Positions 26,261 to 62,944 of a stretch of DNA of 64,000 nt are shown here, piece after piece. Every line of letters starts with the position of its first letter. Position 1 is the first letter of the stretch. The notes beneath the pieces are model-generated. The model ran no database searches. It was not told where the DNA came from and saw only the letters and a program-made list of their open reading frames with translations. The translations under genes were made by a program, and so were the position numbers. The stretch is from the NCBI RefSeq assembly GCF_964355755.1, contig NC_092674.1, positions 16,120,001 to 16,184,000 of the forward strand, given 5' to 3'. The stretch is from Antedon mediterranea. Taxonomy: Eukaryota > Animalia > Echinodermata.

Positions 26261-26269
26261 TTTAATTTG

Positions 26270-27662: not shown

Positions 27663-27822
27663 AAAACACACCTGAGTAGATTCTTGTCATTTGAGGATTT
27701 GTGGGTCACATGATATTCAACTACTCCATTGAACACTTACGCCACCGAGAGTGCAATTCCATTATATGTGTACCCACAATCCTGCAATCAAATGACAAGA
27801 ATCTATTCAGGTGTGTTATAAA
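27663..27822. mobile_element. ~160-bp MITE-like inverted-repeat element
   Basis: AACACACCTGAGTAGATTCTTGTCATTTGA and TCAAATGACAAGAATCTATTCAGGTGTGTT are inverted repeats, related to the IRs at 41614 and 48390. Confidence 0.6.
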
Positions 27823-27947
27823 GTTATTTAATAAATAGTATTAAAATAAGTTTTCAAATAAAATAAAATGAACCCGTTATACTTTATATGGCATTCTTCA
27901 TAACATATAGTATTTAATAGTTTGAAAAGCATCATTGCTTTTGTATG

Positions 27948-34019: not shown

Positions 34020-34828
34020 GTTGCCAGTGGAGCACAGTGATATAGAATAGAAAAAAGTCACTGAATTTTAATATCATTTCGTATGTTAATAGTTAATACA
34101 CTGTGCTCAAGTGGACCCAATTTGGCGAAAGGAGAGCACAGTGATATAAAATATAGAAATAAGTCATTGAATGTTTATATATTTTCGTATGTTAATACAC
34201 TGTGCTCAAGTGGACCTAATATTTGGCGCCAGTGGAGCACAGTGATATAAAATGGAAAAAGTCACTGAATTTTAATATCTTTTCGTATTACACTATGCTC
34301 AAGTGGACCCGATTTGGAGCCAGGGGAGCACTGTGATATAAAATAGAAATAGCCTAAGTCACTGAATTTTAATATCTTTTCGTATGTTAATACACTGTGC
34401 TTACGTGGACCCAATTTGGCGCGCGCGCCAGTGAGCACAGTAATATAAAATAGAAAAAAGTCACTAAATTTTAATATCTTTTCGTCTGTTAATACACTGT
34501 GCTCAAGTGGACCCAATTTGGCACCAATGGGAGCACAGGGAAATAGTCACATACAAAAACATCGAGAAAAAATACTTCTGGAATTTAAAAATATTTCATT
34601 CAAACTTGGTATATATGTTCAATATCGGTTACTCCATCAGTAAACCAAAAGAAAAAATGGTTTCAAGCCACATCAGTGATTTTAATAACTTGCCTTCGCT
34701 TAAGATAATACTTATGAAAAAACATACAATTCCGACACATATATTATGTTAAACTGTAATAATGATTTTGACAACAAAAAAAACGGTTAGGAATTCGATT
34801 TTTTCCCTGTAAATTGAGCAACTTAAAT

Positions 34829-34927
<99 letters not shown>

Positions 34928-35963
34928 TATTATCACAGATTTTCATCCACAAGATCTCATTCTCTAAAAAAAAAATACTCCTTGATATATATATATATAT
35001 GTATATATATATCAAGGAGTATTTTTTTTTAACAAAAGAAATGTTCGTATGTTAATACACTGTGCTCCAGTGGATCCAATTTGGCGCCAGTGGAGCACAG
35101 GGAAATAGTCACATACAAAAACTTCTAGAAAAAATATTTATCGAATTCAAAAATATTTCAAACTTGGTATATAAGTTCAATATCGTAACTAACATACAAA
35201 AAGATATTAACATTCAGTGACTTATTTCTATTTTATATCACTGTACTCCACTGGCTCCAAATTGAGTTCACTTGAGCACAGTGTATTAACATACGAAAAG
35301 ATATTAAAATTCAGTGACTTTTTTCTATTTTATATCAATGTGCTCCACTGGCTCCAAATTGGGTCCACTTGAGCACAGTGTATTAACATACGAAAAGATA
35401 TTAAAATTCAGTGACTTTTTTCTATTTTATATCACTGTGCTCCACTGGCTCCAGATTGGGTTTACTTGAGCACAGTGTATTAACATACGAAAATATATTA
35501 AAATTCAGTGACTTTTTTCTATTTTATATCACTGTGCTCCACTGGCTCCAGATTGGGTTCACTTGAGCACAGTGTATTAACTTACGAAAAGATACTAAAA
35601 ATCATTGACTTATTTCTATTTTATATCAATGTGCTCTCCTGGCTCCAAATTGGGTCCACTTGAGCACAGTGTATTAACATACGAAAAGATATTAAAATTC
35701 AGTGATTATTTTTATTTTATATCATTGTGCTCCCATGGCTCCAAATTCGGTCCACTTGAGCACAGTGTTATTAACATACGAAAAGATATTAAAATTCAGT
35801 GACTTATTTCTATTTTATATCACTGTGCTCCTCACTGGCGCCAAATTGTGTCCACTTGAGCACAGTGTATTTACATACGAAAAGATATTAAAATTAGTGA
35901 CTTATTTCTATTTTATATCACTGTGCTCCACCGCCGGTGCTAAATTTGGTCCACTGGAGCAGT
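34020..35963. repeat. Fold-back array of ~90-bp units flanking a (TA)n microsatellite
   Basis: About 6 units (CAGTGGAGCACAGTGATATA...) at 34020-34540 and about 8 reverse-complement units at 35190-35963. (TA)n at 34832-34925. About 34483-34628 is duplicated at 35045-35185. Confidence 0.8.
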
Positions 35964-37954
35964 TACCGTAGTACTATTTCTAATTCGGAAGTAAATAAAG
36001 GCATAAATGGCGCTCCGTAGAAGTAGATCGTCGAAATGACGCTCTGAAAAAAGGGAAAATACCTCCGATGATGGTGGTGGATGGGTGTCACGGTACGATG
36101 TGGAGCTAGAGAGAGGGAGGAGAGACGTCGTACGTGGATAAATTCAATTGTCTCGTTAAAAATCCCAGTTTTTGTACGACGCAACATCAATCAATGGTCT
36201 TTCTAGTACTGAAAGTTATATTAAGATATGAAGTTGCTAATGTCACAGACGGTGTCGGTTTCTAGTAGTACTAGCCTAGCCTAGGCCTAGTAGGCCTGGC
36301 CTGGTACTGGCCTACTACTAGGTCTAGGCCTACTACTACTAGGCTAGGCTAGGCCTGGCCCTAGGAGTACTAGGCCTAGGGTTAGGCCTAGCCTACTAGT
36401 AGTAGGCTAGGCCTATGCCTATCCCGAGGTAGTGCTACCCGAGGCCTAGTACCTTACTAAATGATTACCCTACTAAATACTACGGTTACTAGGGAGAGGG
36501 GCCTAGTACTAGGCCTAGCTAGGGAGCTAGCTAGGCCTACTACTAACTAGGCTAGGCCTAGTACTAGCCACCACTCTCTAGGCTACTATATTTTTATAGA
36601 CTAGGCCTAGGCCTAGCCCTAGTAGTAGTAGTACACTACAGTAGTTCGGCTATCCAGGGCCTAGCCTAGCTAAGCCTTGGCGGCTTTTTAGTTAGGTCTA
36701 AGTAAGAGTAAGACCACCCATCCCAATTTCCCAGCACAGATCGTCGTATTTTATATTAATAATTAGGCCTCATAAATACTTTTATGAAGAAGAATCACAT
36801 AAAAACTAACAAATAATCCTTTAAATTGATGATTTTACAGACGTATTTCTCGTACACTGTTCGTGAATTTCGCATACCGTACTCAAAGTTCAATATTTTG
36901 TTTTTATGGAGCGCCAAAAGAGCAACTATAATAGAGGGTTAAAAACTCTGTTGAATGCATCTACTTTTAATGCATTTATTATGGAAATAAATGTTTAATT
37001 TCAATATAATTTGTCAATAAAAATTCTGTAACATGTTACTGCTGATAATGTGCAGTTTTCAAAGAATATCGATCAATCAATATCAAGGATATAATTTCGA
37101 TCATTGAGTTATAAACACTACATGTTATAATGATAAATTTGTTGATTTTTATTCATTAAAAGTTAGCAAAAACCGTGTACAATATCAACAGTAACATTTT
37201 AGTTAGATTTTCGTGCTACAGAAGCCATCTTGCAGAGATGAAAAACAGTCGTGACCAGCCGAGCAGAAAAAACAAAAATAACATAGCGTTTTCAGTGGAT
37301 TTTAGGACACTATGTTGATTGAAAAATCGTACCTTCTGTACGGAGGGTTGTATGAGAACAAAAATTACTGTAAAATTTTTTTTAAAGATCGCCCTACATA
37401 ACTGTATGATTGAAAAAAAATGTTTTCACGGCATTTTAGTGTTTCTTCGATGGATTGGTGGCGAAAACATTTTTATAATTTACCAACCGATTTGAATCAC
37501 GACTGAAATGATTTGTTACCAACTAGGCTACCCTCTAGTCTACTACTACTGGTAAGCTAGTCTAGAATAGTCTGGAGACATTTCTTTTTTTTGGGTGATG
37601 GTAAAATGCATTAATTAAATTAATAAATCAACAACATAATTAATATCAAGTGATAAAATACAGTAAAAATGCTTGGTAAATTGTAGATCATGAAATAAGT
37701 CAATGAATCCTAAGCTACAAATATAGAAATATACTGTATCTAATAATATTGTGTATTTATGCATGTGGCTGAGGCGTTTATTGGAGGGCGAGTTTTTCCT
37801 AAAAGATGTTTTATGAGGGTTTGGGGCGTTTATTTGAAAACTGTAAATACAGTATGAACATTTTGTTAATTGCAGGAAATGGAAGCTACCTTTGTTGTAT
37901 GCTTATGAAAGGATCATGATAAAATTGTAATTCCGTTTAGAATCTACCTTTAGG

Positions 37955-40900
37955 ATGACATCTAAATTATTTTTAACACTCATTGGACAGCTGATGTTGG
38001 GGTTTGTATTTTCCAATAGTTTAAAGGTTAAGCCAGTTATAAAAGACCTGGCTAATCATGAATTAAAACTGTATAGAGGGCGCTCGTTCCTCGAAAAGCT
38101 TCAAGACAAAGGACATACAGCATGGCTGGAAAACTCTTGTGAAAATATTCTTGGACTTCTTTTAATGAAGAAAAAAGTGATAAAAAAACTGGATATTGCA
38201 ATTAGTGAAGTTAAACAAAATCAGGAAATTGAGGCACCAGAAAGGCAATTTCAAGTACATACCTTTGAGATATTTCAAAAAGAGTTAAATGAGAGTGAGA
38301 ATTCAATATTTATGGCAATTAATTCTTTGAAAAGAGACTTGGAAGGAGATTACAAAGACATAATTAACATAAAAGACAGTAGTCTTGAGAGACTTGAGGC
38401 ATTAAGAGAGGCAACTTTAAGAGAGGAACAAGAGTTTAATGACTTATTGGCAGCTGAGAAGCATCAAGTTGAATATCAATTGCATTTAAAACAACTAGGA
38501 AATAAATCTTTTGGAGACAATCGAACAAAAGTTGATTTTATCTTGGATGAGATTTTGGCAGAGGTTGCTATAGCAGCAGATAATCTGGAAAATCGTATTG
38601 AAGATCATGCATTTGATCAATCAAAGCAGGTAACACAATTTTTGTTTGATAATAAACTAATAATGATTGTATATCATAAAACACAATCCATACTTTCACT
38701 AGAGATTCATTTAAGGCCCTGTTCACACTGATCAAGTGTTTTATTTATTGTAGTATTGGTACATTTTGTTATAGTTTGCTATCACGGTATCATATTTTAA
38801 AAGGCAGTGGGAAAACAATTTAGGTCATGAATATGTAACAATAATAGTCATGAATGTCGGAACTTCCGTTCTGTGTCTGAATTTATCAATAATCAAATAT
38901 GCACTGTATCCATTTTAGTCACGTGTAACCCGACACTACAGCTCACTATGTTGGTCGGTAAAAACTTGAGCACATGACTGCAGCCATATACAGTATATAG
39001 CCTTGTTTACCATTGTTTTTAAATTAATTTGAAAGAATCAAGAGTTTGTTCCAAGAAAGGATGCAACAAAAGAAAAAAGTGACCTTGCAATCAGTGTGAA
39101 TATAGCCTAGTCCTGAATATTTCAAGCCAAATGTTTTCTCTCGGTGACCAACTACCAACTTTTCACTCCCAAATGTTGGCAGGTATCCAAAATGGCACCA
39201 AATTGGACCAGTAGGTCAGAAATAAACGAAGAATGAATTGCACTGTATACAGAATCATCAATCATAATATCAGAATTGGCACATTCAAAGTTTTCATTAT
39301 ATATCTGTAGGTACGAGGTGCTTTTATTGAAGCAGTTGTTCGTTTAGATGAGAATGGTAGAAATATGAATAATTCAAATACACGACACAATCATCAAGAT
39401 ATTATGAGTTTGTTGGTTGACACTAATAATAATCAGTATGTTTTAACTAAACCTAAAGATACAACAGTTCCCCATGAAGACCATCATTTCATTCAGGTAA
39501 ACAAATTACTTTGATGATTATTATTATTTGACATTTCAAGCACAATCTTGCCAGGAACAAGAAAAGGTTAATTGAAGTATTTTTAATGATTATATTTTTG
39601 TATGCCAAAGTTCAAAAAGATATTTATAAATTAAATCGGCAGTCCAAAAAAATGCCTTGCTTACAGTAAAAACTAGTTCGTGTCCGTGAACATAGATAGG
39701 CTTTGAAGAATATAAAAAGTATACCTGGCTAGCTACTCAACTGATTAGAGATAAAATAAACCATCTCGGCCAAAGTCAAGTCAAAGTGAACTCAACCACA
39801 AATTAATAGGTCAAATCGGCCCCAATAAAGTATAGAATGAAAAAGTTGCAAACAAAGAGCATGGGGAATATAGCTGTTCAAGAAGACTTTTAAATGAATA
39901 ATTTTAGACTAGGAACAAAAATAATAAAGAATAACTTTATACTACAATAAATAAATATTTATTATTTTTCTTATACGTATACCGAAGTTTATGTGAGACC
40001 ACGGTGACTTGAGTTGCCGTGGGGATGAGTTGAAACAACTTGACTTTGGCCGCGATGGTTTAGGGACGACATCCGACATCCTAACCTACAACAGATTATT
40101 TGCAAATTCAAGTTTTGACAAATTTTGTCAAAAGTCTTTAAAAACATCTTGTTTTTATATGTTTTCAAAATACTGTAACTTGCGTACATTTATGTTTCTG
40201 TTTACTAGGATATCATCATTCTTATGATAGTGGCATTTGTCTGTGGATGGCTCTGTAACTCAATTCATTTACCAGCAATGTTTGGCTATATTATGGCAGG
40301 TGTAATTCTTGGGTCTTCAGGATTTGGAGCTATCAAGGTACAGTAATTACAAAATAACTATTTAAAATATTTTTTAATTTTTGCCCACTTGTATTAAACA
40401 AAAGAAGAAACAATATTGCCATGCATCTAGTTTGGGAATCGAATGGCGAGGTACACACCTTTGGGAGGTGGAACTAAATCTACTGGCCAATTCAAAACTT
40501 TAAAAACTAAGCATCTCTATCTAAAGATAGGTTGCCATTCAAAATAATTTGTATTACAAAAATTTTTTATTTCACTCATTTTTAGCTGCCTAGTTTTGTT
40601 GGGTTGATAAATGACGAATTTAATTCCAATACTAAAATTGAAAAGTCACTATGGACAAGTTAGGATATCCACCGCGCAAATGTGCACGTCATACGTCAAA
40701 ATATTGCGCAACGAAAAAAGATTATGCCATTGTGACCTGAAGAAAATAAAATGTTGTTACTGTGCTCTCTATTTTGTGTCTAAGTATATATACAGTATAC
40801 ACTATATACTGTATATACTACATATAGTGTAGCATAGGTGAAATTACCCGCCTTTTATTCCAATTTCATCAAAATGAAAAACGAACATAGCAATTTTGGA

Positions 40901-43900
40901 AGGGAATTATCTGAGAAACAATTCAGTAATTCATGCATTTGAACATGATATCATCAAAATTTTAAAAATGGTAAATCATGCAAAAGATAATTAATTGACC
41001 TAGACAATATCAAAATCTGGGGGAAAATGGAATACGGATAAGTGGAGATGCGCTCAGATATGATCAGCTATGAAGACAAATATCCTATATTTCATATTCA
41101 AGTGGCCATACGATGATGTCACAATATCCGGTTAGCCATATATCTACAACTCATCACCTTCCAGAATGTGTAATAAAAATAATTTTCATAATTTTTTTTA
41201 AAATACATCATTTTGACAAATTTGTGAACGTTTTCATCAAAAACGTGCGTGAATTGTTTAATTTGAAGTTATCGTATGATGTGATCTTATATCGGAATGG
41301 TTTAAAATTTGGTAAACTTTCTGTGAAACATGCCATTTTTTTCATTACAAAGTTAGCGCATGATATAAATTACACTTTTGCTAAGTTTCAATTTACCTAT
41401 GTTAAATACGCAAATTTTATAAAATCGTGTGTAAGGTCACGTTGCGCAATTGTAAACGACATGAAAATGTTAGCTGCACAACCTCACGTGAATGACGATT
41501 TGTTGAGAAAATTACGAAATGTTATGTTTGCAAATTTTAGAGATACGAGAGACACAAAAATTACAGAAAAAATAAAGATCTTTGACAATCACATAACTGT
41601 TGCAGATAACCAATTTTATATAACACCTAAATAAATTCCTGTCATTTGATTGGACGAATGTGGGTCACATGGCGTGTAATAGTACGCACTATTAAACGAT
41701 CGTTTAATAGTACTTTTTTAAACATTTTGTGTACGGAAAAAAAGACGTTTCGCTGATGAAAACAAATTTAGAATACATCATATAATGATGGATTAATGGG
41801 TTTAATAAAGACGTATTTTTTCATTGAGCAAATAATAAAAATAATTCTTTACTCCATGGTTTTTAGGGCCTAAGCCTACGAGTATAAAATTAGGCCTAAG
41901 TACGATCGTTGTAGATTAATCCTAATCTTGGTTGTATTTTATATGTTTTCAAAAATAAAAAAATACTTCAAATACAATCAAAATGACGCGTCCTAAGAAA
42001 ACTGCACAAGACGACCTTTACTACGAGTCCGACTTTTCCGATTTAGATTTTGAATTAGAAGATTTAAGCTTTAATTCCGGTGACGAAGATGTGACAGACG
42101 AGTTTAATTGTGTTTGTAAAGAAAAAGATGATGCAGAAATGATAGGGTGCGAAAATCCCAAATGTTTGAAATGGTACCATTTTCGTTGCGTTGGAGTAAC
42201 ACAAGACTCTCTACCGAAGGGCCAATGGAAATGTTACGTTTGCACCGAATCCGCCATTTCTACAGATAATTTGCACACCCAAAAACTAAAAAAAGGTAAG
42301 CTTTTATGATTGTAAAAAAGTAATGAATTCAACTACAGTATTCTGTTTAGCAGACATATACAAAACTCTTCAAATGTTGATATAAAACTATTAATTAGGC
42401 TTATATATTTTATTTGGATTGCCTTTTATTTTACGTGTAAATGAAATAAACTAATAAAACGACAACAAATAAATCAAAAATTTAAAAAAAAAGTGTATTT
42501 AAGATTAATTTTAATGGCTAAAAACGTCTAGTATAATAAATGGGGTGGGAAAACATAAGTGGGATATAAGTTTAAGCATGCCGATTTCCACTAATGTTTT
42601 GTGAAGCCTATAATTTATTTTCTTTACATTTATTTAGGTAAAATGAAACGCCCCAAAAACGGGTATAGCGGGGACGAGGCATTGGAGTTTGCCAACGAAA
42701 ATTTACGAACGTCTGTATTGTCAATCAAATCACATCCGATGTTCAGTGGCTCGTTTCCTAACGCCGAAATAGCGCAAGAAATAGCGGCACAGATCTTAAC
42801 AGATAATATGTCAACATTTGCAGAATTCGCTCGGAAAACAACAAGAAAGTTGTGGACTGTGGTTACCAGCGGTGACAATACATTTTTAGGACCAGAAGCT
42901 AATGAATGCATGTTCAGGGAGTTGAATTCACTTATATCTAAGGATGAAGACATTTTTTAACATTGGAAAACATTATGTGGCAGAAAATGTAGAGTATCAG
43001 ATATACTTTACAGTTATGTGATGAGGACAATGTACGCCAATATTGTGGCTGAACGGAACTGAGTCGAGAAACCGACAGAAACGGATAACCAGGATGAAGA
43101 TCTACTGACTTCCAAAGACGAACAAGTTATACGGTATGTTGCTGGCTACATTTCATTCGCGTTGATTAAACGGTTTAAAGGCACTAAAGCCTCTTCTCTC
43201 TGCCATATGCTCTCATCGTGGAAGGAAGGGGATCCGAAGGAAGGAGTTGAACCTGACGGAGATAACTTCTATACGTATTCAAAAAAATGGATTGACAAGC
43301 AAAGTAGAGGGGGACTGTTTAAAGTCAACCATAATGTTTATATCTTCTTTAGGAGGGTAGAAGTTTTGACTAGACGAGTACTACATGTTTCGAAAATATT
43401 AACATTCAAATCATTAAGCATGAATGACGAGATAATAAACATTGTTATTAACGACGCTATGATACAACAGTTGTGGTGCGCACTTGTCGACGGAAAGCTC
43501 CACGGTGCACCCAGTACACACTTCCTGACGACGGTGATAAAATACTTCGTTAAAATCCGTTGTACTGCGTTTGTCCGAGTAAACATGTTGATACTAAGAA
43601 AAAAAGAAGAAACAAAAACAAATAAGTCAGAAAAGCCTCTTAGAAAAAGACTACCTAAAAAGACAAATACAAAGAAATGAAATTAATACGCACAATGATT
43701 TTACATAATACTAATAACAATTGAATATAGCACGACATAAATTAGCCAATGTATATTTGGTTTTTCCTTGGCGATAAAATGTTTTCATGTTTTTTTATAT
43801 ATTTTAATATTAGGCTATGATGATGATGTTTTTTTTTTATTTACCAGTTTAATAAAATAAGTACGATGTTATTAGTCTTACTTTACTTCTTTTTCTTGGC

Positions 43901-46900
43901 CAAAGGTGTTCCATCAAGCAAGTTAGAGACTGATTCACCCTCTCTTCTTGTATTTCCTCTTTTTGCAGCTTTGATGCAACGTCCAGTAGCATGTAAAATT
44001 AAATAACTGGGTGATATCTGGATTTGTATTTTGCCCTCCAGCACTGCGTTGTTTAGAAAAATACTGTTCTAACGGATCCTGGTTGAACTTACGACTCAAA
44101 ATAAATTCTACTCCCGGTATTTCAAGCAACAACTTAGAGAGCTCAACAAAAGATTTCACTGTCAGAATTAAAAAGAAAATTAATTTAAATATTTTTATTT
44201 GTACATATATATAAAAATATATATTGTTGTTGACACAATTCAGGCTGTTAACGGGTCACGAACTTAATTATAATTGTTCATACCTGTTATCCGTAAGCCA
44301 GTAAGTGTTTGTTCACTAAGCAGCGTTTTGCGTTTCCCGTTCCCACTGTAGGCTGATTTTCCCAGTCGTCGATGTATTTCAAAAACACGTCTGTCAGCCA
44401 CTGAGAATATAAAATTATCAAATAAATGTCTGAATGTAGGTAGGCTGGCTTATCATTCATGATTACCGTACATATTTGAAAAGCCATTTCTTTTATAACA
44501 TGAAATAAATTTACTGTACCTACTATAATACAATAATGAGCAAATATAACTGCACTTTGTTTTATTTGAATAAAAAACTAGACATTATGACGAGGACCTA
44601 CCGTAAAGCGTTCGTCATTGGAGCTGCGGTATGGGTTAAGATCTGGATTTCTTTTATTCCTACCCTCGTAAGAATTCTTAACGTTCAAGCAATCGAAAAA
44701 ACGATTGAACATCCTAACAAATTGTACCGTTGAGGAAAGCTCGTCATCACCAAGTAGCTCTAAAGCGTTAGCAACAGTGCTACTAAGTACCTGTGAGAAA
44801 ACGTGTTAAAAAGTATTAAATGTCAAATCAGGATAGTAGGGTCGGTTGTGACATATAGGTTCATTAACATAGCTTTTGATCTCAATACCTGTGCAGCAAG
44901 GTACACTCACATCCGCAATGATGGTGTCAAGTAGATATGCTCGTTCTTTAGTTTATGTAAAATTCTTAGTCCAGGAGATTTCTGTTCAAGACCTATATCA
45001 TGTTCGTAGATTTTTACCAGATGCGACCATTTGATTGGTTTTCCTTTGTTCTGTGGACAAAAGAAGATTATTATTATTTGTTCTACAAAAAATAATGTAT
45101 TTAACCGGTTTAGATACGGTAACGTATACGGTAACTTACCATTAGCTTTCTTGAAGTTCTGCTGGACCAAGACTTCTCCCAATTGTTTTGTGTTGTCTTT
45201 ATAAGGTGCGGGACATCCGAGAAGAAATATATATCTCTATCGCGTGCATACAGGTTGACAGTCTTGTATTGCAGTCGGTCGTCGTCAGTGCTGTGTATTT
45301 TGAAAAATTTTCTGCAATAACTGCACGGACTTTTAAGCTTAAGAATTCTAGAGCTTCAACAATATTCCAGATAATTGGAAATAGTTGGTCCCCTGTCATT
45401 GCTCGACATGGGTAATATGCAATGGGTAGTCGGTGACTCGTAAAGATGCCCATCACCATGATTACTAGGACATGCGTTGCGCATTCACTTTGATTTCGTC
45501 CTTCTACTGACATTCGGAACGCTTTGAGTTCTTCATTCAGTGCTCCCAGTTCTGTCATACCGTCGATTTCCCCGGTTTTGTGATTATAAACCATCCCGCT
45601 CTTGATGTTCATTTCATCAATAGCAATAACAACATTCTGTTGCCACGTGTTTAAAATATCGGGATTTATACCAGGTACAGCATCTGTAAAGTGCTTGTAC
45701 CTGCTGATAGTGTTTATGTGTGGTAACACAAGCATCCCACACTTCTTTAAAAATTGGTAAGCGGCAGGAGATTTGGTGTGTAGGGCCATGCATAAGCGCA
45801 TTATAGCTGGGTGCCATCTTATTCCTTTCTTGTTTTGTAACGCTACTGCCTGCAGTTGTTGTTCAAAAAGTAGTTTTTCTGGAGATCTGTCAGGAAAGTT
45901 CAACGAACATTTAGACTCATCTAGAATAGTGCAAAATGCATCGTTTTGTTTGTCGTTTAACTTCACAGATTCCTTGTTTAGCATTTCTGCGATTTCATTT
46001 GTTAGTGTCTTGTTCCTTGCTGTGAGACGTTTTTTATCTTTCTTCATGTTCTGTAATCTTTTTTTCTTTTCTTCTTCGGAAAGAACGGAAAACGTCAAAT
46101 GTGACGATGATTCTGTTTTTAAGAAGTTTTTCGTTCTCTTGCGTGCATACGCCGTCATCGCTCTAACAGTAACATTTACTCCATACACGCGACAAACTTT
46201 ACATTGGCGACCGGTTGCTACAAAAACTTCGCACTTAACATGGATGATAATGTCATCTTCAACATAGGCAATTTCTTTCCCATTTGTACCCTTAAAAGAA
46301 GTTTTCATTTTCAAAGGGGCTGGAATCAGGTTACCACCACATAAAGGCATAGATATGAGATCTAGAAAAGTGCTAATGTTTTCGGTTTCCAAAACTTCTG
46401 GTATATCTGAAAGAAAGGCGCAGTTTTTATGATCTATTTTTTTACCTCGTATAACAATTTCCCAGTTACCGTTGCTTTGAATAGAAACGCATCGCTTATT
46501 TTGTAAAATGGCTGAATCAAATTCAATTAAAATTAGGCGTTTTTCTTCCTTTACTACAATGTAGCCTCGTTTTATGGATTCAATCTCCAGAACATCGCGG
46601 TTTAATGCAGCAGGACCACAAATTAAGCAATCAGAAGACGAATGTGCAATAAACGGCTTAACCTCAATTGAAACTGTTACGTGCATCTTTTTCTTTGCCC
46701 TATCACGCCAACTTCGCAATTTTCGTTCACATTTTGAGCATATATAAGGAGGGTGTACACTTTCGTCATCGTTGCTAACATCAATATTCAGCCATTTTGT
46801 GATAAGTTCACTGTATTACTCCTTTCTGAAAGGTAATGAACGATTTCGATGTTCCTCAGTCGTACCGTTACATTGACATAGCCGGCAAATATTTGCCAGA

Positions 46901-49900
46901 TTCAATTGATGTAATTCGTTCATTTAAACTGAAATAACGACATAAAAACAGTAATGAGTAGGGGCCTATAAATAATAAATTATTATAAATCTAAATTCTA
47001 TTTTCTTAAGTTAACAAAATAGGCCTACTTCTAATATTTATTTAGGCCTAAACAGGCGGAATAGCACAAAGACCTTTATCTAATGCAGATTGTTTTACTA
47101 ACCGCGATGTACTGAACTGTACATAATCCTTTTAAACAATGGCTTATAATTACAAAAGAGCATAGACTATATTTGTAATTGAATTTTAACCAACACATGT
47201 AATTTGTAGTTGTTGTTACGGGTTGATACAATGGAGTAACGATTTTTACTCCATGTTGATACTAAACGAATATTCTCGTAATATTTTATACCATATTTCA
47301 TAATAACGACTATCCGAAAACTAAAACCAATTGATTAATTTCTTCTTTAATAAAATATTACTACTAATACTATTTCTAACGTTATTACAATTATTAAATA
47401 TTAATAAAAAACGTATTGCTACTATTATTTATATTGTTTTTTATCACTATAGACGCGCCTATGCATTAACCTATTGATAGGCCTACCGGTTAAGGTATGC
47501 ACTAAATATGTCCATCATTATATGATGCAATTTATTAAATAATAATATATTACGAAAATATAGGCCTACTGTGTAGTAGGCTTGTCCACACATCGTTAAA
47601 CGATAGATAATTTAGTCCTACAATTTCACTGAACTCTAAGTTTCTGATCGTAAAAACCATATATTTTATGATATTAATTTAATTATACAATATCAGACTA
47701 AAATAAAAGAACTAAACAGTCATAATATAGACTGAAACATAAATTAAATGTCATGATAGTAATAAAAATAAGAAATTGTGTCGTTGGAATTCTACTATAC
47801 GTATATTTTTGAATATTCATGAGCTTAAATTATACAATTTTTTTCATGCGCGCATTTGCGCGCACTAAAATATAATTTTAAAATAAGTTAGTTAGAGTGT
47901 TTTATATGCTACAAAATGCACTAGGGTTCGTAAATTAAAAAGTTGTTTAAACGGTAAAATTTCGACTTACCAAATGATACGTCTATGGCTTGATAAAAAA
48001 TATGATTAATTTGTTAGCTGGTATAAAAACTGCGATATCTCCATGAAAAATTACTCGATTTTTAAACGTTTTTTTCGAGAAAAAAGCTCAAAGAACAATG
48101 AACAACTGCACAAAGGTCATGCTTCACTATGATGTATTAGAAACTACTGCGCAGCCTCTGTTTACTTTTCTTGTCACCGATGTCATGCCTGGCTTCTTCC
48201 TTAATTAGGGCGTTACGTAATCAGAGCCGACTCTGCAGCGAGCTGCACGGGTAAGCAGGATGTTCTTCAAAGGATCGTTATGGGAAGTTTATTACCCTAT
48301 GCTTAAGCACTACCGCACAGCGTGATACTAGTTCGATTAACTGGATAGCTAGGCCGAGTTGTGTCTCCTTTTATTCTTTACTCCATGATTCAAATGACAG
48401 GAATCTATTTAGATGTTATATAAAACAAATAATGAATGTTTTATATTCGTGTAATGGTACAAATAATGGCATTTGGTGAATGATGAAAGGTTATATTTGT
48501 ATAATATTGTATTCTTTATAGATTAAAGTATATATTAACTTAAAAAAGGGCAAAACGTTAACAAATCAGCATTTTTAGCGACTTCCGGAGCAGAGCGTTT
48601 AGCTGTTGCACTGGCCAAAAATATGTTTGTAATGGGTCAAATATAATTTATAGAAATTTCCCATGGTGCACATAGAGAAAGAAATTAAAATAATTTGGGA
48701 AACTGTGCATCAACTACAGTAATATAGTTGATTCAAAATGTAAAAACTGGAAAATTATTAATTTTAGCATTTTTAATATATATTTTGCATTGGGAAACAA
48801 TTAAACTGCATGTATATGTATTAAGGTAAACTTCTAATTGATTTACACTCTGAAAACCTCCTATGTCATCCCCATTTCATACTGATACAATTTTACTTGT
48901 GAAAATGCCAAAAAAAGTTTAATATTATCAATATCAGGTTGAATTTTCATTTTTTTTTAAATTTTCCTTTGTAGGCTGTTGTTCAAGTAGAAACATTAAG
49001 TGAGTTTGGTGCATTTTTCATATTGTTTTGTGTTGGATTGGAGTTTTCACCTGAAAAAATAAGAAAGGTATGTTTCTCTAAATAAATAGACATTTTGTCA
49101 TAACTACTGTTACAGAGGTCCCAACTTGGGAAAGTCCATTCGCAGGAGATTTTGTTGTAAACCTCATTCAATTCGTCGGGGCGTCGAAAGTCAACGCGCA
49201 GGGAAGTGAAAATCAACACGCGTGTTGTTTACATCTCTTAATTAACTTAATAATGCAACATAACATGGCATTTAATGATCAGACAAACAAATATACAACT
49301 TCTTGAAAACTTGTTATTTACAATATTTACAAATAGCAAGTTTTTTAAGTCTTTCATCCATCATGATCAGTATGTTACATACAATATTTACACATAAGTT
49401 GGCTTAATGTTTACATAAGTTTATCCATCAGTATTTTTATATATATTTTTTTTTATGGACACTTCCTCAGTACAAAGAATTAAAAAAATATATATTTTAA
49501 CTAAAATTCATGACATAACATAATTTAACTTAATTACATAATGTATAATATTCCCACATGATAGTATTGCCCAATAGAATTTAATACATTTTTTTAGGAA
49601 CAGACCTAGGCCTTCTACTTCTAGGCCCTAGCTACCATTTTTAAACCCAAAAACAATCAAGATTGAAATAAACTATTTCCGTCTTATATGCTACATTAAG
49701 CGAATTAACATATTATTTCAGATGAAAAACATTTAGTTTTATATTGTTTTATCCATACATAATTACACTGGCATTAAAGATATAAGAGTAAAATGTAGGC
49801 CGTTTATGAGCTATATATTTCGCCGATTTATTATCGCGGGGAAATTCCCCACCAGCGACATCGATCGATCGAGGAGTAGGCCTAGGCTAGAGGCCTAGCG

Positions 49901-52900
49901 TGCATGCCGGAATGGGTGGATTATTGCTATATAAATAACAAGTTTGAACAAAAGAGCTTACGACAATCTTAGGTACTACTTGCTTGGCGAATCCATACCT
50001 TTTAAATCATTTAACAAGTTCGTAATCGGATCGTACAGTAAAACCAAATAACACTGCCTCAACAACCTCGTGCGATCTGTTGTTCTTTGCAGCAGATCAA
50101 CATTGGTAGAGTCCATTAATTATGAGGGTGTTTAAAAATGTAATAACTATTAAAAACGTGTCTCAACCACTGTGTAATCAAAGCGTTTATTTAGTTAAAA
50201 CTTGGATCCTCTCAAAATTGATAATCGCGTATTCCGGTTACCACGTGATTGATTCACGGTTGGTTGCACGCTTCTTTTTTTTACACGTCCGGCGTGTAGT
50301 ACTGTGCATGTTTATATTATTGTTACGGTTTAACAAAGGCAGTGCATACAAATAAAAATACAATAATAGACCACGGAGACTGCATGAATAGACATTGTTT
50401 CAACATCCTGCCTCACTTTTGTCTGGTTATTGACTATTGTTGACCTGGGCTGAGCCTGGGTGTAACCGTAAATCAATTTGGCCAAAAATATGGAGAAATT
50501 TGAAAATGCGGTAGAAAACGTCGAGATATCGGTAGCACGGTAGATGGGTACTAAAAGCGGTAGACTACCGCGAGTAGCGGTAGACTTGGGACCCCAGCTG
50601 TTAGCTTTGGTATTTTTCCATGTAGTTGGTAATGTCATTCGTACAAAGATCACAATTGGGTTCGATGATATAAATAATACACGGTAATAGTACCTGTAGC
50701 AAAAGATACTGTAGCCAGGTATAGGTAGGCAATTTTAAAGCAAGGACCAATTGAAAGTATAGTCTGAACAGGGAGTTTAACAACTCCCTGGTCTGAATGC
50801 CATCTTGAAATGGGGTTTATTGGATGGACTGCTCGCTATTGTTAAGTCTATGGAGTAATGCTCACATACTGTATGTTTGTTCAGTGCAACTTACAGTATA
50901 TATATTTTTTTTATATCTCTACCAAGCAACCTTCTTTGTTTTCTACTCTTATTCAGACTCCACCCTGCCTCATTTTGTTGTATTTCTTTTATTCCTGTCC
51001 ACCCAGGCAGCACTTGCCAACTCTTATACAATGACGTTATCCAGATTCCTTCACTTGCACTGATGAAGGGCTAGTGTTGCCCGAAAGCCCTGCTTACTTT
51101 TCTGGCTGTTTTACTTATCATTTTGATTTAGCTTTTCCCTTTTTTTTTGTATCTCTATTGAGATTCAGCCACTGATACCCACAGCATTGTCATTTTTCAG
51201 TAATTTGCCTTTGGATTTATATATATGCTGTATATATATATATATAATAAATAAAATAACAGCAGAAAACTTGGTTACTTCATTGTTTTAATCACTACAA
51301 ATTTGTTTCGTACGACCAGCATGTAGCTGGCCGCACTCTTCATGTGAGCTATGCTCACTGAACCGTAAGAACGAGTTAGTCTCTACTTGTAGACATAGGA
51401 AAAAATTCTTACTAAATTTCAGATCCAAATAGTTTATCTAAAACAATAGGCTATTGTATATGACTTCCTGATGACTCACTTCTATTAAGCACTATGAGAC
51501 AACTGTGTCACTTATGTTTTATATTTCACCTGAAGAGTGTGGCCAGCTACATGCTGGTCGTACGAAACAAATTTGTAGTGATTAAAACAATGAAGTAACC
51601 AAGTTTTCTGCTGTTATTTTATTTATTTATGCTCTACCTTGGTATTGAGCACTCTATCCTAACGGTCTGATAATTTCAACCTGAATATATATGATGTTTG
51701 GTTCAATGTAACCGTCTAAAAAGTTCTCAATACAGTAAAGTAGAGCTGAAATATACGTTAAGTCATATTTATGCAAATATTGAGAAATGGGGTCAAGGGT
51801 CAAAATTTGGTACTTCCGGACATTTTTTTGTAAAATGTCTCATTAGAGCAAATATAAATATATATATTCTGAACCAGACTGTGCAAAAACAAACTCTACG
51901 ATTAGTAGTTTTTAAGATATGGTAACCCAGCAATTTCACCCTTATTTGCATATTTAAGCTAGTTTGCATACTTTCGGGATGAGTGACAGAGGTGTGATGC
52001 TAAAAAAATAATCACCTTATCATATGTAACCATTTAAAAAAAAAAATCTCTGTTTGCAATTTGTTTCACTCAAAATGCTAGATTGACTAGCCTAAGAGTA
52101 TTGTTCGGCAATTCTGAATGAGGATATGGAGTCATTTCTCCAATGCTTTTACCAGAAAGCTTTATTTTTTATTTTTCACCTCTCAAAATAAATGGGGTAC
52201 AGGATTATATCTGCCTATTAAACTGTCAAATTAAAATTGTACTCATATCATTGGTAAATACAGAACAAATTGTTTCACAATCTTAATGAATTTTAACTAA
52301 AATAAGCAAAACAAATTCAACCAGTTGAGACAGACCTGACATCAGTTAATTTATATAAAATGTTGCTAAATTATGTGCACTTTCTTTAAAGGTTTTACAT
52401 GTTGCGGTATTTGGAAGTATGTCTATGACTATGTTAATGGTGCTGTTTGGTCTGGTATGTGGTTATTTTCTTCATATTGCACCAAGTCAAAGTACCTTTA
52501 TTGCAGCCTGTCTTTCATTGTCTAGTACACCATTGGTGGTGAAGTTTCTAGGATCTACTCATAAACATGGAAAAGCTGAAGGTATACTATATATATATAC
52601 TATATTATTTATTGTTTGTACTAAAATAGGATAACTATAACTGAGTAGAAGTAAGATGTCCAGCAAAAATACAAATATTAAATAAAACTAATTGATTGAG
52701 CAAACATATAATAAAAAGTGGGAGAAATTGAGGTATGAATAGGCAAGATGCGCTCTATTTAATGCGATGAGCTATGACGAAAGAGACAAAAACAATATAT
52801 TTTATATTCGGGTGGCCATATGATGACATCATAACATCCGAGAGGTAACAATTTTGCATAAATTCATATCTACAACTTTCTGCTTGCAAAATAAGTTAAA

Positions 52901-55900
52901 CAAATTAGTGGTCACCTTTGATCATGAAGAGCTATGAAATAGGCATTATTTTGACATTTTTCAACTAAAATGCGCAGAAATTGTCAAATTCAACTTGTTT
53001 GCATGGCGTGCTTGAAAGTGGAAATTGGTCTTATTATTTATTTCAAACTGCTAGAAAAGGCTGGAAAAATATAATTCAAGTAAAAAAAAATGTTTTTTAC
53101 ATTCCATGTAAAAAAGTGTGTGCGTGGGAATTTTTGACATGCGTTAAATGCCATATTCGTGTAGAAAGTTGATTAAAAATTAATTTTGCGCATTTTGAAA
53201 TTTTAAATGCGTGTGCGCGCATAACTTTGTGTACAAAACGCCATTTTTTATCCACAGAAAATTTGCCATTGATATGAATTAAACTTTTACCAATTGTCAA
53301 TAAAAATTAAGTTTGGTTTTTATTCTATGATCAATCATAACAATTCTTATAATCGTGCTTTAGTCATGTTGCGCAACCATGCAAAAATAAGTGCACAACT
53401 TCACATAAATGTCCATAGGTTGACAAAGTTATGAAATGTTATGTTTTCACATTTCAGAGATAGGCAACTCACAAAAATTAATGAAAGAAAGACGACTAGA
53501 TTTGAACTCGTCACTTTGACGAGTTAGTTATCCGCATGACAAATCATGTGCACACCATAAGTTAGAATATTGCGCACAAAAAAGATTATGCTATTATGAC
53601 CTGACAAAAATGGAATGTTAGTGTGCTGTCTATTTTGTGTCTAAATATATATACAGTATACACTAAATTCTGTATACATATTACATACAGTGTAGCATAG
53701 GTAAAATTACGAGACCCGCCATTTATTCCTATTTTAAAAATGGTGACGTCATCAAAATGAAGCACATCACGATACGACAACATCCGATAAATTTGTACAT
53801 GAATTTGTATCTACAATTTAATATCATCTAGAATACGTTTTAATCACGAGTATCACTTTTTATTCTATAAAGAGCTTTAACAGATTGAAATTTACTGTAA
53901 AGATGAAAATAATTGACCCACATTATTTAAATTTTTAGACATGATATGTCTGTATGATAAAATATTTTTTAACTCATGCGAAAGATAGTTGATTAAACTA
54001 GTCAATATTAAAATATAATACAGGACTAACTAATATATAATACAGGAAAACAAATTTGATGATAAGTTTCAACAGTTATCCACCAAGGTGAACTAAAAAA
54101 ACAAATAACATTTTTAATTCTATTTTATATGCAGGTAATTCGACCACTAGTGTAATAAAACCTCTATTTGGTTTTTTGGCTTTTTTAACTTCTGCAATTT
54201 GCCTCTGTTTGCCTATGTTAAATATTTCTACCTTGGTAAAAGTGCTCATTATCTGCACTGAGGAAACAAATGGATGGTTAACGGTTAAGATTAATAGTGA
54301 TGTATGTTGCAAAATAGGGATCTGTTCTTTTCTAATCTCAAATGCAAGAACATACTAGAAAACATGAGAAATGGGAAAAAGGTAATTTATTATTAATGAA
54401 AATAGATGTATGGTAACAACAATATAAACAGCAACAAGAGTGTTGAAAAGTGTACAGATACACAGTAAGGGTACATTCACAGCTGCTCTGCCTCCTGGAA
54501 TGGAAAACAGTGGGCTGTCTGGTAAACAATTGAATATGGTATTGAACAATCAAACCCTCGTAGTTTATGTGAGTTCACAGGTTTAAATCATGGAACATAT
54601 GTTTCAATGGCAAGTAACTATACATTTAACTGTATCGGTGTTATCCACATGGTATTTATACATGGTACGGGTAGTGGGCCGACTTATATTTCACATTTTT
54701 ACCGTTTAAAGACGAAAAACTATCGCAGTAAGCCGGTATAGTAATTTCACGTAAAATACAGTTTGTGGCCGTAAATTAGATCGAAAAAATTTAAGGATTT
54801 AAATGTTAGCCAAATGATGGAGTCATAACAAAAAATGACAGCTCACTTGGTTTTCATTCAAGAAATGGAAATTGGCAATAAAAAAAAATAAAATTCTGAC
54901 ATCTGACCCTAGATAGATAAAATAATTTTAATATTTGTGTAAATTACATACTCCTGAGATACACTGCATATCAGGAGTTGTTTTGGGACATTCTGTGTGT
55001 CACCATGAAAATCATGAATGAACAATTTGGACCGAAGGTCTAGCTTCTGTCTTAGGTATGCAACAAAAGGGAGTCTCATACAACATGTACCGAATGCAAA
55101 ATCAATTTATTCTTCTATGATCAATTTCTTATCAAACGTGAACAAACACAAAATGATACAAACACAAAAACCATGGACCTCAAACAAGTGAGTGACCACA
55201 ATTGAGGGCAATAATTTAACCTTATGGATAATAAATCTACTTAAGTATGACCTGTCTCCAATTACCAGGACTCTTACAGTATGGTTCTTATCAATAACAT
55301 TAAATTTGTTATAAATCTGGATTAATATATTACGACGTAACCCGTCTCCAATTACCACCAGGGTGTCTTCAATGATATTACCCTTCTCAACAACTTTACA
55401 ATAATTGCCACTCAGGGCTTACAGAGTAAATACTAGCTCCAGTGTGGTACTTATGTGACTTAAGTGTCAACAATCAACTGTTATTACCTAATGCAATTCA
55501 AATAATATGGAAATATACTACTGCTTATTATTCTGATACTGTGGATTTACAACACCAAGTTATCTTTTCGAATGTCCAAGTGTAAGCTACAGTTCCACAC
55601 GCTAGCCGTCTCTTCTTCCAGTGGTTAACATGATTAAAATGGCTGTGGCTTTCAGACTTCCTCCGGTTGTACAAATTAACAGATTGTTAAGTGTAACCTC
55701 ATGTACTTGAACGTAGGTGACACTATATTTGAATCAGACATATATAAACAATACTAACAAATTCTATGGTGAACTTCAATTATCATAAGAAACATAAATT
55801 TTTATCAAGCGACTATTAGGTATAACTTATATACTCACAATGTCCACTGCCAAAGGCTGCTTAGACTATCATAGGAGACGACAAATTCCATGCACGTTCA

Positions 55901-57739
55901 GCTGGGAGCCTTGTCGGGAGTTTCAATCCGCGATACTGCGCTCACCCCAGTCCGTCGGTTTATAACTGAACTACAATAATATGAGCATCATGGTTCTACC
56001 AATTCTTATAAAAGGCCAGGCTTATACAGTTAGGTGCAACCAATGCACACTGCGCCCCACGATAAATAAGCTCTAAACAATCACTCCTAGATGTCCCGCA
56101 CAATTGGCTGTGGGAATTAATGACTCAATGCAGTGATGTCGAGCGATTGAGCGCCTAACATTTCGCAAACCACGCTAGACAACGCTTCGCCTCACCGGGC
56201 GAGCGATATGCAAATTTTGCCACCGCAACAATACCTTGAAATGACACTGTGTCTGTTAATTTGTAGAGAAATACCAACAATTCATCAAATGCTGTTATTA
56301 ATAAAGCTTGTATTTCCATTTTTTAGATAAAGAGGATACAGATTACAGCAGTACTTTGCTTAGTATTCTGGTGGTACAAGACATTCAACTAGGTTTGTTA
56401 GTGGCAATACTCCCAGCATTAGCAGGTGCTAATAACCAACTTGTGATTCATGAACATCACTCTTCATCTAAAGCTTTCAAGTTTTTTCATGTACTTATTT
56501 TGATATTTGAAATAGTTGCATGTAAGTTAAAACACAACAAACTAACAATCATAATGTGTATTTTAAATACAAATCGCAGTCAATAAAGACTGAATAGGAA
56601 TTATTTTTACATAGATATTAAAATTATTAAAAATGAAAAAAGAGAGCTTCAATCAATCAGTTTAGAGGAAGTACTGGGGAATTCCTGATAATTGTTTAGA
56701 ATTCATCCATATGTTTTTTTCATTTTCACACCAACGAATAGGTAAGAGGTTTAACAAAAAAAAAACAACACAAAAGGTAAATCCAAATGAAAAAAAACGA
56801 GCAAAATTATATTATTGTAGGTTTGGTCCCAAGTTGTGTATACTAAATAAAAGAAAGGTTTTTGTTTACATTTCACATGTTAAAGGTTTTCTAAGGCATT
56901 ATTTATGTTTCCAAGAACCATACGTGTACACTTACTAGAGGATGGGCATTAATAAATAAACTATTACAAGAACCATACGTGTACACTTACTAGAGGATGG
57001 GCATTAATAAATAAACTATTACAAGAACCATACGTGTACACTTACTAGAGGATGGGCATTAATAAATAAACTATTACAAGAACCATACGTGTACACTTAC
57101 TAGAGGATGGCCATTAATAAATAAACTATTACAAGAACCATACGTGTACACTTACTAGAGGATGGGCATTAATAAATAAACTATTACAAGAACCATACGT
57201 GTACACTTACTAGAGGATGGGCATTAATAAATAAACTATTACAAGAACCATACGTGTACACTTACTAGAGGATGGGCATTAATAAATAAACTATTACAAG
57301 AACCATACGTGTACACTTACTAGAGGATGGGCATTAATAAATAAACTATTACAAGAACCATACGTGTACACTTACTAGAGGATGGCCATTAATAAATAAA
57401 CTATTACAAGAACCATACGTGTACACTTACTAGAGGATGGGCATTAATAAATAAACTATTACAAGTATATTTTCTTCTTGAGTCTGCTTTTACAAGGCCT
57501 AAAAATCTTCAAGTTTCAGAACACTTTAAAGCACTTTAAGATTACAGAAGATATTTTATAAATAATGTATATTTCTAATCTTTGTATATTCTTTTTTGTT
57601 AGCTCTATGGTCAGTGTTGATGCTGAGTTTCTTCATTAGCCGATATTTAGTTTCACCTATATTTTACAGACTCAGAGGTGAGGCAAACAAGGAGCTATTG
57701 TTACTAGGGGCAGTATCATTGGCTTTTTTTATGCTTACG
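37955..57739 (+). CDS. TMCO3: TMCO3-like transmembrane and coiled-coil protein (CPA2/KefC-like cation/H+ antiporter), 3'-partial
   Basis: Exons 37955-38629, 39311-39496, 40209-40337, 48975-49067, 52392-52581, 56327-56521 and 57603-57739, with GT-AG introns and consistent phases. Signal peptide and coiled coil, then [11 protein letters not shown]...[28 protein letters not shown]...[18 protein letters not shown] and VQDIQLGL, matching vertebrate TMCO3 as I recall it. I found no later exons in the window. Confidence 0.92.
41983..43680 (+). pseudogene. PHD finger plus P-transposase C-terminal-like domain protein (2 exons, ~450 aa, two in-frame stops)
   Basis: Exon 1 (41983-42295) has C4HC3 CVC...[15 protein letters not shown]...WKCYVC. 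Exon 2 (42638-43680) is in one frame with TAA at 42958 and TGA at 43060, and contains [11 protein letters not shown] and [10 protein letters not shown]. Confidence 0.75.
43849..46923 (-). pseudogene. P-element/THAP9-family transposase with RAG1-N-terminal-like Cys/His domain (multi-exon, disrupted)
   Basis: RWHP...SPAAYQFL...LP, IDEMNIK (D1), [15 protein letters not shown]|[23 protein letters not shown] (E). ATG at 46923 with TAA at 46818. A deletion/frameshift near 45312 removes the D2 motif, and there is a TGA at 44907. The 3' end is approximate. Confidence 0.85.
50905..51225 (+). mobile_element. Penelope-like pLTR copy (same family as 2897-3335)
   Basis: Near-identical reverse complement of 3010-3335, ending in (TA)n. 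Confidence 0.65.
51057..51093 (+). ncRNA. Minimal hammerhead motif, cleavage-site U mutated
   Basis: GCA-CTGATGA-A-GGGC..GCCC-GAAA-GC-CC-TGC. The 3153 copy has TC where this one has CC. Confidence 0.55.
51292..51347 (-). ncRNA. Inverted copy of the 51526 hammerhead, core mutated
   Basis: Minus strand reads TCAC-ATGAAGA-...-GAAACAAATTTGTA-GTGA. The first C of CUGAnGA is replaced by A. Confidence 0.5.
51526..51581 (+). ncRNA. Type I hammerhead ribozyme (second family)
   Basis: TCAC-CTGAAGA-GTGTGGCCAGC(TACAT)GCTGGTCGTAC-GAAA-CAAATTTG-TA-GTGA. Stem I is TCAC/GTGA, stem II is 11 bp, stem III is palindromic, and the cleavage triplet is GUA. Confidence 0.7.
52740..54000 (-). mobile_element. Helitron-like non-autonomous repeat, two partial copies in tandem
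   Basis: Minus-strand hairpin (53505-53525) followed by CTAG (53499-53496), the same terminus as at 26230-26260. The flanking blocks match 40660-41600. Confidence 0.5.
56912..57465. repeat. 55-bp minisatellite, 10 copies
   Basis: Unit CAAGAACCATACGTGTACACTTACTAGAGGATGGGCATTAATAAATAAACTATTA. Two copies carry GGCC instead of GGGC. Confidence 0.95.
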
Positions 57740-61617: not shown

Positions 61618-62944
61618 ATATTCTTTACTTTTGTGATCTATTCAAGGCAAATGGTTTAAATTATTTTTTTTTTTTTAATCATGAATAATTATCATAATAA
61701 AATAATTAACTCAACTTGATTAGCATATTTGATTTCATTATGTAGTAAAAATCATAACCAAAAGTATGTACCGACTTTCTATACCATTGAGTACAAATTA
61801 TATTTTCTTGCGATTTACTGAAATTTTCCCTTACGTAAATGTATGTATAATTGAAGAATTTATTGTACTTGGAACAAGCAAGGTGGTACAAATCTGGAAA
61901 ATTCTGACCCCAGCGGACTGTACCATTTTTATGTAAAAAGGCTTAAAAATCTTGGTTTAAAACTTTTAAATTTTAGTTTAGAATATGCAAAGAAAATTAT
62001 TTAATAGAGGCATTTGATTTTAATTGTTTTACTAGTCTACACACCAGGCTGGACTTATGCCTTCTATAGCTAGTAGTGTAGACCATTAAAGCTGAAAGTG
62101 AAACTTATGTATACTAACTATGGGCGTAAATGCGTGTGTCACCTTTGGATAGCCTAAGCTATACTGTATCTAGGCATAAGGTTTAGAAAAGCTACAGACT
62201 AGGGACTTACGCATTATGATGGTAGATGAAAGAATACAGTCATTTACGCATGCGTAGCACAGTATACTCGACTCGGTTCCTTTATTTACAGGATTTAATT
62301 GTATATGCTCAATTTTACGTTTGGTATTCTAGGCAGAGCAAAGTTTATGACATAATTTTGAAACTTTTCAACAATAAAAAATAAGCGATGAATAATTCAT
62401 GTTTATTTAAGTTTTCATTCTTAAGCACTGTCTACACTATCAAAGTTTGTGACAAAAAAATGTGATGTGTCACATAAAGTTTGATAGTGTAGACAGAGCT
62501 TTAGTTGTTGTTGAAACAAACGGTGCTGAAACAATGTATTTAAATCAAAAGTGAAAGTTTTAATCTTTTTTACGCTCCTTTTCCCGATTTTTTTTCCTTT
62601 ATGGTAGGATAATTTTTTTTTTTCCAGATTTATAGGGGGGGGGGGGGCGTGCGTGCATCCCAATGCATAAAGTTCTTACTGATGATTAGGAGATGACCTT
62701 TTGTTTGGATTTGACAATCAGTTATGAAATTCCATTCCTTTTAATTCTTTAGATGAAATGAATGGTTGCCAATATGCACTTTGGCTTTTTTTTACCAATA
62801 ATAGCATGCATGATTTATTTTGAATACTATGTGGCATGGAGAAGCATTTTTCCCCTACAGTGAATGCTAGATCCAGCATTCAGTCGAAGCTGATAAACCA
62901 CAATGGATGTCGTGAATTTTGTTCAAAATTGAGAAATTTGTGTA

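Follow-up and report, generated by a model that had tools for sequence, protein, structure and literature searches.

Transposases of the P superfamily, as described for the Drosophila P element (PDB 6P5A; the consulted portions of PMC7776569) and for vertebrate THAP9, are encoded by spliced genes lying within inverted repeats and combine a THAP domain, a helix-turn-helix (HTH), an RNase H domain split by a GTP-binding insertion, and a fused C-terminal domain (CTD). RAG1/RAG2 and the RAGL/ProtoRAG transposons follow another design: according to the consulted portions of PMC7204232 and PMC4411706, two convergent genes encode a Transib/RAG1-type catalytic core with an N-terminal zinc domain (NZD) and a second protein with a kelch propeller, an acidic tract, and a C-terminal PHD finger. 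Here we analyze 64,000 nucleotides of the feather star Antedon mediterranea (Echinodermata; RefSeq assembly GCF_964355755.1, contig NC_092674.1, positions 16,120,001 to 16,184,000 of the forward strand; this whole stretch is the window, and positions are counted from its first letter). Judged from its sequence, the window holds a DNA transposon of the P superfamily, a copy that is damaged and dead and whose two genes face each other. We consider it probable that these genes encode a split P transposase, in which the partner protein (gene 2) supplies the CTD that the transposase lacks.

The element shares with the Drosophila P element and THAP9 the HTH, the split RNase H with its GTP-binding insertion, the predicted CTD fold, the spliced coding sequence, and the inverted repeats. 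It differs in that the CTD is on a separate facing gene accompanied by acidic, PHD, and helical modules, and in that the transposase has a RAG1-type zinc domain and no THAP match; moreover, it has two candidate pairs of ends. It is assigned to the P superfamily by its core, while two canonical features of P/THAP9, the THAP domain and the fused CTD, are absent. With RAG1/RAG2 and RAGL/ProtoRAG it has in common the two convergent genes, a homologous N-terminal NZD, and a PHD with an acidic tract on the second protein. Two RAGL features are missing: the core is P type rather than Transib type, and the partner has no kelch propeller, being apparently derived from the transposase's own CTD. Its PHD is N-terminal and ING-like, with a spacing other than that given for RAG2L in the consulted part of PMC7204232.

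Further comparisons involve single domains or the layout. Chapaev transposons, as presented in the consulted part of a preprint (bioRxiv 10.64898/2026.01.24.700457), share an NZD/Chapa domain that lies at the N terminus, binds two zincs, and has ligands of type I (one His, then His plus two Cys), but the Antedon element has a P-superfamily core and a second gene. The likeness to N-RAG-TP of Aplysia (as cited in PMC8355894, consulted in part) lies in the N-terminal NZD/Chapa domain. Two-gene PIF/Harbinger elements likewise pair a transposase with a convergent DNA-binding partner within one element; that partner, however, is a MADF/Myb protein without a PHD and not a split transposase domain. 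Neither a two-gene P element nor a PHD-plus-NZD form of P element was described in the literature searched (listings and abstracts, with Repbase and subscription papers beyond reach).

A P-type transposase that ends before its CTD

The transposase runs on the minus strand from 46923 to about 43883 in five exons defined by GT/AG sites and faces gene 2 on the plus strand, as follows.

41983-42295, plus strand: gene 2 exon 1, ATG at 41983; acidic tract and ING-like PHD, codons 43-87 (42109-42243)
42296-42637, plus strand: gene 2 intron, GT..AG, phase 1; the spliced product matches annotated proteins P0001/P0002
42638-43680, plus strand: gene 2 exon 2; helical domain at about 42658-43074, then CTD-like domain at 43099-43605 and a basic tail; stop at 43680
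43681-43882, no strand: intergenic gap, with one poly(A)-type hexamer on each strand, 43851-43856 (plus) and 43836-43841 (minus)
43883-44158, minus strand: transposase exon 5; RNase H C-terminal part, catalytic Glu at 44067-44069
44400-44284, 44790-44602, and 45050-44889, minus strand: transposase exons 4, 3, and 2; GTP-binding insertion domain, with frameshifts and stops
45140-46923, minus strand: transposase exon 1; NZD/Chapa domain (46911-46615), middle region, basic helical stretch, P-type HTH, and RNase H N-terminal part

An initial annotation of this DNA had proposed two spliced convergent genes, both lesioned, and our splice reconstruction and Pfam matches bear this out. It had also placed their stops about 170 bp apart; the distance is 168, 202, or 254 nt, depending on the frame used after a 3' frameshift. 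The 202-nt gap appears to fit the tail of a relative best. An Rfam scan of 41000-49500 gave no match, nor was a histone-type 3' hairpin detected there.

The P-type core is recognized by matches above the cut-off to the Pfam families TNP-like RNaseH_N, GBD, and RNaseH_C (PF21787, PF21788, and PF21789), which make up an RNase H with a GTP-binding insertion; the HTH match (PF12017) falls just under the cut-off, and the Atlas neighbors of the transposase are P transposases. The first Asp (45616-45618, in exon 1) and the Glu of the D-D-E triad are present, and the region of the second Asp is struck by a 19-nt deletion whose bases are present in another copy. Further lesions are a stop at codon 36 and frameshifts. 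Relative to other copies, the deletions comprise those 19 nt, after 45310, and some 32 nt in the vicinity of 45637; indels are present in both of the transposase variants observed.

Whichever frame is followed, the transposase ends 44 to 73 codons past the catalytic Glu, and beyond that point there is only the antisense strand of gene 2; it therefore has no CTD. Word-indexed protein searches returned only A. mediterranea's own proteins or none and yielded no relatives of the transposase; their failure to show longer, fused forms is weak evidence against such forms. No relative was found in the viral contigs searched.

The facing gene is predicted to encode the missing CTD

Spliced by coordinates, gene 2 comprises 451 codons, including two premature stops at 42958 and 43060 (codons 212 and 246). 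It differs from the intact annotated protein P0002 at 10 of the 451 positions, the two stops among them; P0001 is a truncated product, and both proteins are labeled Antedon mediterranea. A contig of run X1, which is tentatively taken to be RNA, reads through the gene 2 intron and is uninformative on expression.

A HMMER search with exon 2 gathered 806 proteins at an E value of ≤0.001. The best 150 of these 806 were inspected: all are of stand-alone size (128 to 535 amino acids), and pieces of the transposase core matched none of them. An AlphaFold2 model of the partner built from 150 sequences (predicted local distance difference test score [pLDDT], 84) is all helical after the N-terminal PHD. 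When it was compared with 48,161 solved chains, the best match to residues 259-427 was the CTD of the Drosophila P transposase (chain 6p5a_B; Z 11.7, root mean square deviation 2.1 Å, 118 of 118 residues), and the next match had a Z score of 6.7. Further signals, each weak alone, point the same way: Foldseek finds 6p5a_B at rank 28 (E = 0.38), a profile search finds it at an E value of 0.93, and the Pfam family Tnp_P_element_C has a subthreshold match in 1 of 43 partner-family members scanned. Positions conserved in at least 90% of the family are Y271, G274, W322, RG-L (328-331), E346, W384, and R412, and an LRK-L tail is conserved at 87 to 96%. The whole CTD domain is retained, including the basic tail. 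The preceding helical domain (about 42658-43074) has no clear fold assigned; residues 112-250 gave no match above Z 6.4 in a search with the whole model.

The partner is thus predicted, on the strength of this model, to be the transposase's own split-off CTD with extra modules. Since the transposase itself has none, the missing domain would be encoded by the facing gene, and the two proteins likely form one cut-and-paste enzyme. In this sense the two-component P-type transposase of the initial annotation is supported. Where it saw an independent analogue of RAG, the predicted fold makes the partner the transposase's own CTD and not a separately recruited protein. Its statement that the partner is not a RAG2 homologue stands: there is no kelch Pfam match, and the PHD spacing is unlike the RAG2L pattern in the consulted part of PMC7204232.

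An ING-like PHD among exchangeable front modules

The acidic tract and ING-like PHD that had been noted at the start of gene 2 are real: PF00628 matches with an E value of 1e-7, and the best PDB sequence matches are PHDs of ING proteins (E = 2e-11). The claim that Phe, Met, and Trp occupy the positions of an H3K4me3 aromatic cage fared less well. Met53 and Trp64 match in the alignment with ING4, but the position of the ING cage Tyr is taken by Asn42, with Phe41 one residue off. The aromatic cage of ING-type H3K4me3 readers has an invariant Trp and 2 to 4 aromatic residues. Because the cage is incomplete in gene 2, H3K4me3 reading by its PHD is putative. According to the consulted part of PMC3241642, the Trp suggests a reader of methylated K4 and an acidic run before the first Cys marks readers of unmodified K4; gene 2 has such an acidic run ahead of the first Cys of its PHD. 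We lean toward the view that the partner PHD binds the H3 tail; such binding is plausible, and specificity for H3K4me3 is putative.

The PHD appears to be a swappable front module of the partner family. Among the 29 finger-bearing or full-length members in the best 150 of 806, 10 carry a PHD, 11 carry a C2H2 finger, and 8 (of at least 400 amino acids) carry neither, the search pattern for the PHD having required the Trp; the other 121 members are shorter, have neither finger, and may lack the first exon. In the 20 partner-family proteins that were looked up, PHD forms come from crinoids, sea stars, sea urchins, and a hemichordate, and C2H2 forms come from amphioxus, a sea anemone, Hydra, and the hemichordate. 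On a tree of the 29 members, which leaves out the 121 shorter ones, the PHD label requires 4 changes, compared with 8.4 when shuffled, a result compatible with a single origin of the PHD or with several. Three sea-urchin proteins (P0023, P0024, and P0030) have a PHD with a long low-complexity insert ahead of its last two Cys. Queried with P0002, the Atlas gave generic PHD clusters, below 0.9, and nothing else.

A RAG1-type zinc domain on the transposase

No THAP domain was found in the transposase (no PF05485 match in Pfam at an E value of ≤10). Its N terminus instead matches PF12560 and zf-AD. The first 103 residues score 25.0 bits with PF12560 (cut-off, 23.3); with the upstream 36 codons added, the match is weaker (E = 0.001). 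The best PDB match is the RAG1 NZD structure 21WB (E = 0.009). All eight zinc ligands are kept (H5, C13, C16, C62, C65, H94, C100, and C103), in the type I pattern of the consulted part of the NZD preprint (bioRxiv 10.64898/2026.01.24.700457). The NZD motifs given in the consulted part of PMC1131882, H-x3-L-x3-C-R-x-C, D-x3-I-h-P-x2-F-C-x2-C, and W-x-p-h-x(3-6)-C-x2-C, are all three recognizable, with conservative changes at hydrophobic positions. A single-sequence model of the domain reached a pLDDT of 45, too poor for fold comparison.

From these motifs and ligands, the transposase appears to start with a RAG1-type NZD/Chapa domain. The initial annotation had overlooked this closer link to RAG. 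In their consulted portions, PMC4411706 reports no other known transposable element that encodes the Chapa domain, and the NZD preprint names Chapaev as the only lineage that consistently retains the NZD/Chapa domain; the supplements of the latter list sporadic NZD-like proteins, which may include P-type ones. The NZD on a P-type core is known here from one element.

Linkage and layout in other copies

A second organism (organism B) shows the same convergent arrangement: one contig from each of two runs holds gene 2 together with the transposase's 3' half, at about 96% identity. Partner copies that are nearly identical also sit on separate large contigs in three species, which fits genes that move. 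A scan of metagenomes produced 257 pattern matches and four confirmed loci (L001 to L004), all near-identical members of one family, in which the partner gene is a distant relative with a degenerate finger. In L001 and L003, this gene lies on the same strand as the P transposase, about 50 nt before its last exon, and the transposase again stops about 50 residues past the Glu. The RAG-like convergent layout that had been proposed is therefore present in the window and in organism B, but the order is tandem in L001 and L003, and convergence is also seen in an ordinary two-gene Harbinger element of the window. These loci support linkage of the partner to a tail-less transposase; either convergence is not fixed, or those copies may be rearranged. 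A LINE-like fragment (348-1070 of L001) is inserted toward the 5' end of that locus's partner gene; L003 lacks it.

An internally deleted derivative, with 41785-41821 joined to 45565 in the transposase 5' half, was seen in contigs of both organisms; it is therefore older than their split or has moved between them.

Candidate termini

Two pairs of inverted repeats bracket the genes.

41616-41623, repeated at 48416-48423, no strand: palindromic 8-mer TTATATAA, a target site duplication (TSD) or the fixed end motif of an abundant repeat
41624-41649, plus strand: left arm of the outer inverted repeat, 26 bp, beginning with CA; candidate terminus
48390-48415, minus strand: outer right inverted repeat, 24 of 26 positions matching the left; TTATATAA follows at 48416-48423
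41776-41792, plus strand: left arm of the inner inverted repeat, all 17 bp matching 47511-47527; a subterminal repeat or an alternative terminus
47511-47527, minus strand: inner right inverted repeat; the contig of another copy has 29 extra bases, keeps 13 bp of the match, and continues to 47635

The initial annotation placed both genes within the same inverted repeats. They are indeed bracketed, but by two candidate pairs, of which the outer also belongs to a very abundant short repeat, and so either pair is only a putative terminus. The two views of the boundaries seem to us evenly balanced. In one, the outer repeats belong to an unrelated, abundant nonautonomous family, possibly Crypton-like, and the element extends from about 41785 to an end between 47100 and 48400. 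The outer motif occurs four times in the window and also inside other contigs behind different sequence. Although the 8-mers on either side of the 26-bp pair are identical, they form a fixed palindromic motif of the abundant family: contigs with unlike flanks before 41616 number 32, 81, and 71 in runs X1, X4, and X6, so TTATATAA is common to the whole repeat family. In two contigs of organism B, likeness to the window begins at 41785 and the flanks before it are unrelated (agreement of these loose ends, 0.65), and others depart at 41771-41777; for the inner 17-bp pair, none of 500 shuffles reached 15 bp. On the other side, the outer repeats are inverted, start with CA, and have 8-bp flanks, as expected of P elements; short contigs join 41616-41719 to 48386-48423, resembling deletion derivatives; summed contig depth, which is not a copy number, climbs stepwise toward 48415; a contig passes through the inner right repeat to 47635; and no TSD-flanked pair was found at 41776-41785 or the inner repeats. 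One loose-end sequence from the copy comparison is absent from the window.

Just outside the outer right repeat, 48416-48500 itself belongs to the abundant repeat family, which suggests a tandem or self-targeted insertion at the TTATATAA motif. At 27659-27823 lies a noncoding element of about 165 bp, both ends of which resemble the outer inverted repeat; it is a member of the abundant short family.

Origin and possible role of the partner

[quoted passage not shown] Judged by that structure, the catalytic subunit (NZD, HTH, and RNase H with its GTP-binding insertion) would cut and join DNA, the partner's CTD would pack in trans between the RNase H and GTP-binding domains, and its basic C-terminal helix would contact the transposon ends and target DNA. 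The front module may tether the complex, the PHD to chromatin and the C2H2 finger to DNA, and the added helical domain (112-250) may, as a guess, stand in for the covalent link that was lost. It is probable that the partner works as a subunit of the transposase. Only tentatively do we suggest that PHD binding biases insertion to H3K4-methylated chromatin. It is equally doubtful that an echinoderm/hemichordate P lineage arrived independently at the RAG design, with an NZD-capped catalytic subunit and a split-off PHD subunit that reads methylated H3K4 and steers insertion. As far as the sequences indicate, the RAG parallel would be half convergent and half due to a shared domain, with chromatin targeting putative.

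Several observations weigh against this picture. The PHD is absent in 19 of the 29 finger-bearing or full-length partner members, and members that have it carry an aromatic residue at ING's Tyr position in 2 of 9 cases and the Met in 6 of 10. No transposase is found in up to 1.5 kb downstream of the partner in L002 and L004, where other sequence stands, and the genomic context covers two families only, that of the window and that of L001 to L004. Finally, the partner fold is helical, and Z scores under about 13 can reflect a common helical arrangement; the full coverage of the alignment, together with the hints from sequence, speaks against that explanation here.

The partner could also be derived from the CTD and act as a regulator, such as a repressor or an anti-silencing factor working through its PHD, without being a required subunit. 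Its interchangeable PHD and C2H2 front modules and its acidic tract do resemble a transcriptional regulator, and gene 2 is intact in one of two annotated copies, while both transposase variants carry indels. We nonetheless regard this as unlikely, as the catalytic gene lacks the CTD, the domain through which the fly enzyme, in its structure, touches donor and target DNA, and the partner has it whole, basic tail included. Far less probable is a one-gene P element broken in this copy, with its CTD exon flipped by an inversion or insertion and the PHD exon a chance neighbor. The window copy is decayed and sits among nested repeats, but gene 2 has its own start, its own intron, and an intact 451-amino-acid copy, the layout recurs in organism B, and PHD-plus-CTD proteins of 380 to 535 amino acids exist in crinoids, sea stars, sea urchins, and the hemichordate; a copy-specific rearrangement is thereby largely refuted.

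We also considered, and rejected, gene 2 as a host ING pseudogene or captured host cargo, which is scarcely credible despite the ING proteins at the head of the PDB matches. ING proteins carry their PHD at the C terminus, behind an ING N-terminal domain. In gene 2, the ING similarity is limited to residues 31-90, the PHD occupies positions 43-87 of 451, there is no ING Pfam match, and 364 residues of the transposase-CTD family follow. Only the PHD module may derive from an ING-like source. The split P transposase remains our preferred reading.

Other features of the window

A two-gene Harbinger-type element with inverted ends of about 50 bp occupies 6627-10301, and a short relative of it adjoins at about 10255-10637.

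6772-8115, plus strand: Harbinger DDE_Tnp_4 open reading frame, convergent with the MADF-like one
8649-9197, minus strand: Harbinger MADF-like open reading frame, the convergent partner

A diverged repeat family (67 to 85% identity) is present at 25937-26261, 29047-30152, 40631-41572, and 52689-53994, one copy lying just left of the P-type element. Also near that element, a frame open for 266 codons at 37931-38731 has no Pfam match and may be a host exon. Tandem arrays lie at 17791-18478, 24301-24930, 30151-30848, 34023-35961, 56909-57465, and 62915-63427; a single unit recurs in opposite orientations at 34023-34627 and 35041-35961.

Implications for P elements and RAG1

If the P transposase is naturally split, the function of its CTD can be tested on its own. 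A swappable PHD or C2H2 reader, on the subunit expected to touch target DNA, suggests modular aiming of a cut-and-paste enzyme. An NZD on a P-type core would contradict the published limit of this domain, among transposons, to RAG1L/TransibSU and Chapaev cores (consulted portions of PMC4411706 and bioRxiv 10.64898/2026.01.24.700457). It would show the NZD moving between transposase superfamilies in an animal group that still harbors RAG-like transposons, a point relevant to the assembly of RAG1. On the doubtful reading of an independently reached RAG design, P elements would be a further carrier, and possibly a donor, of the N-terminal domain of RAG1.

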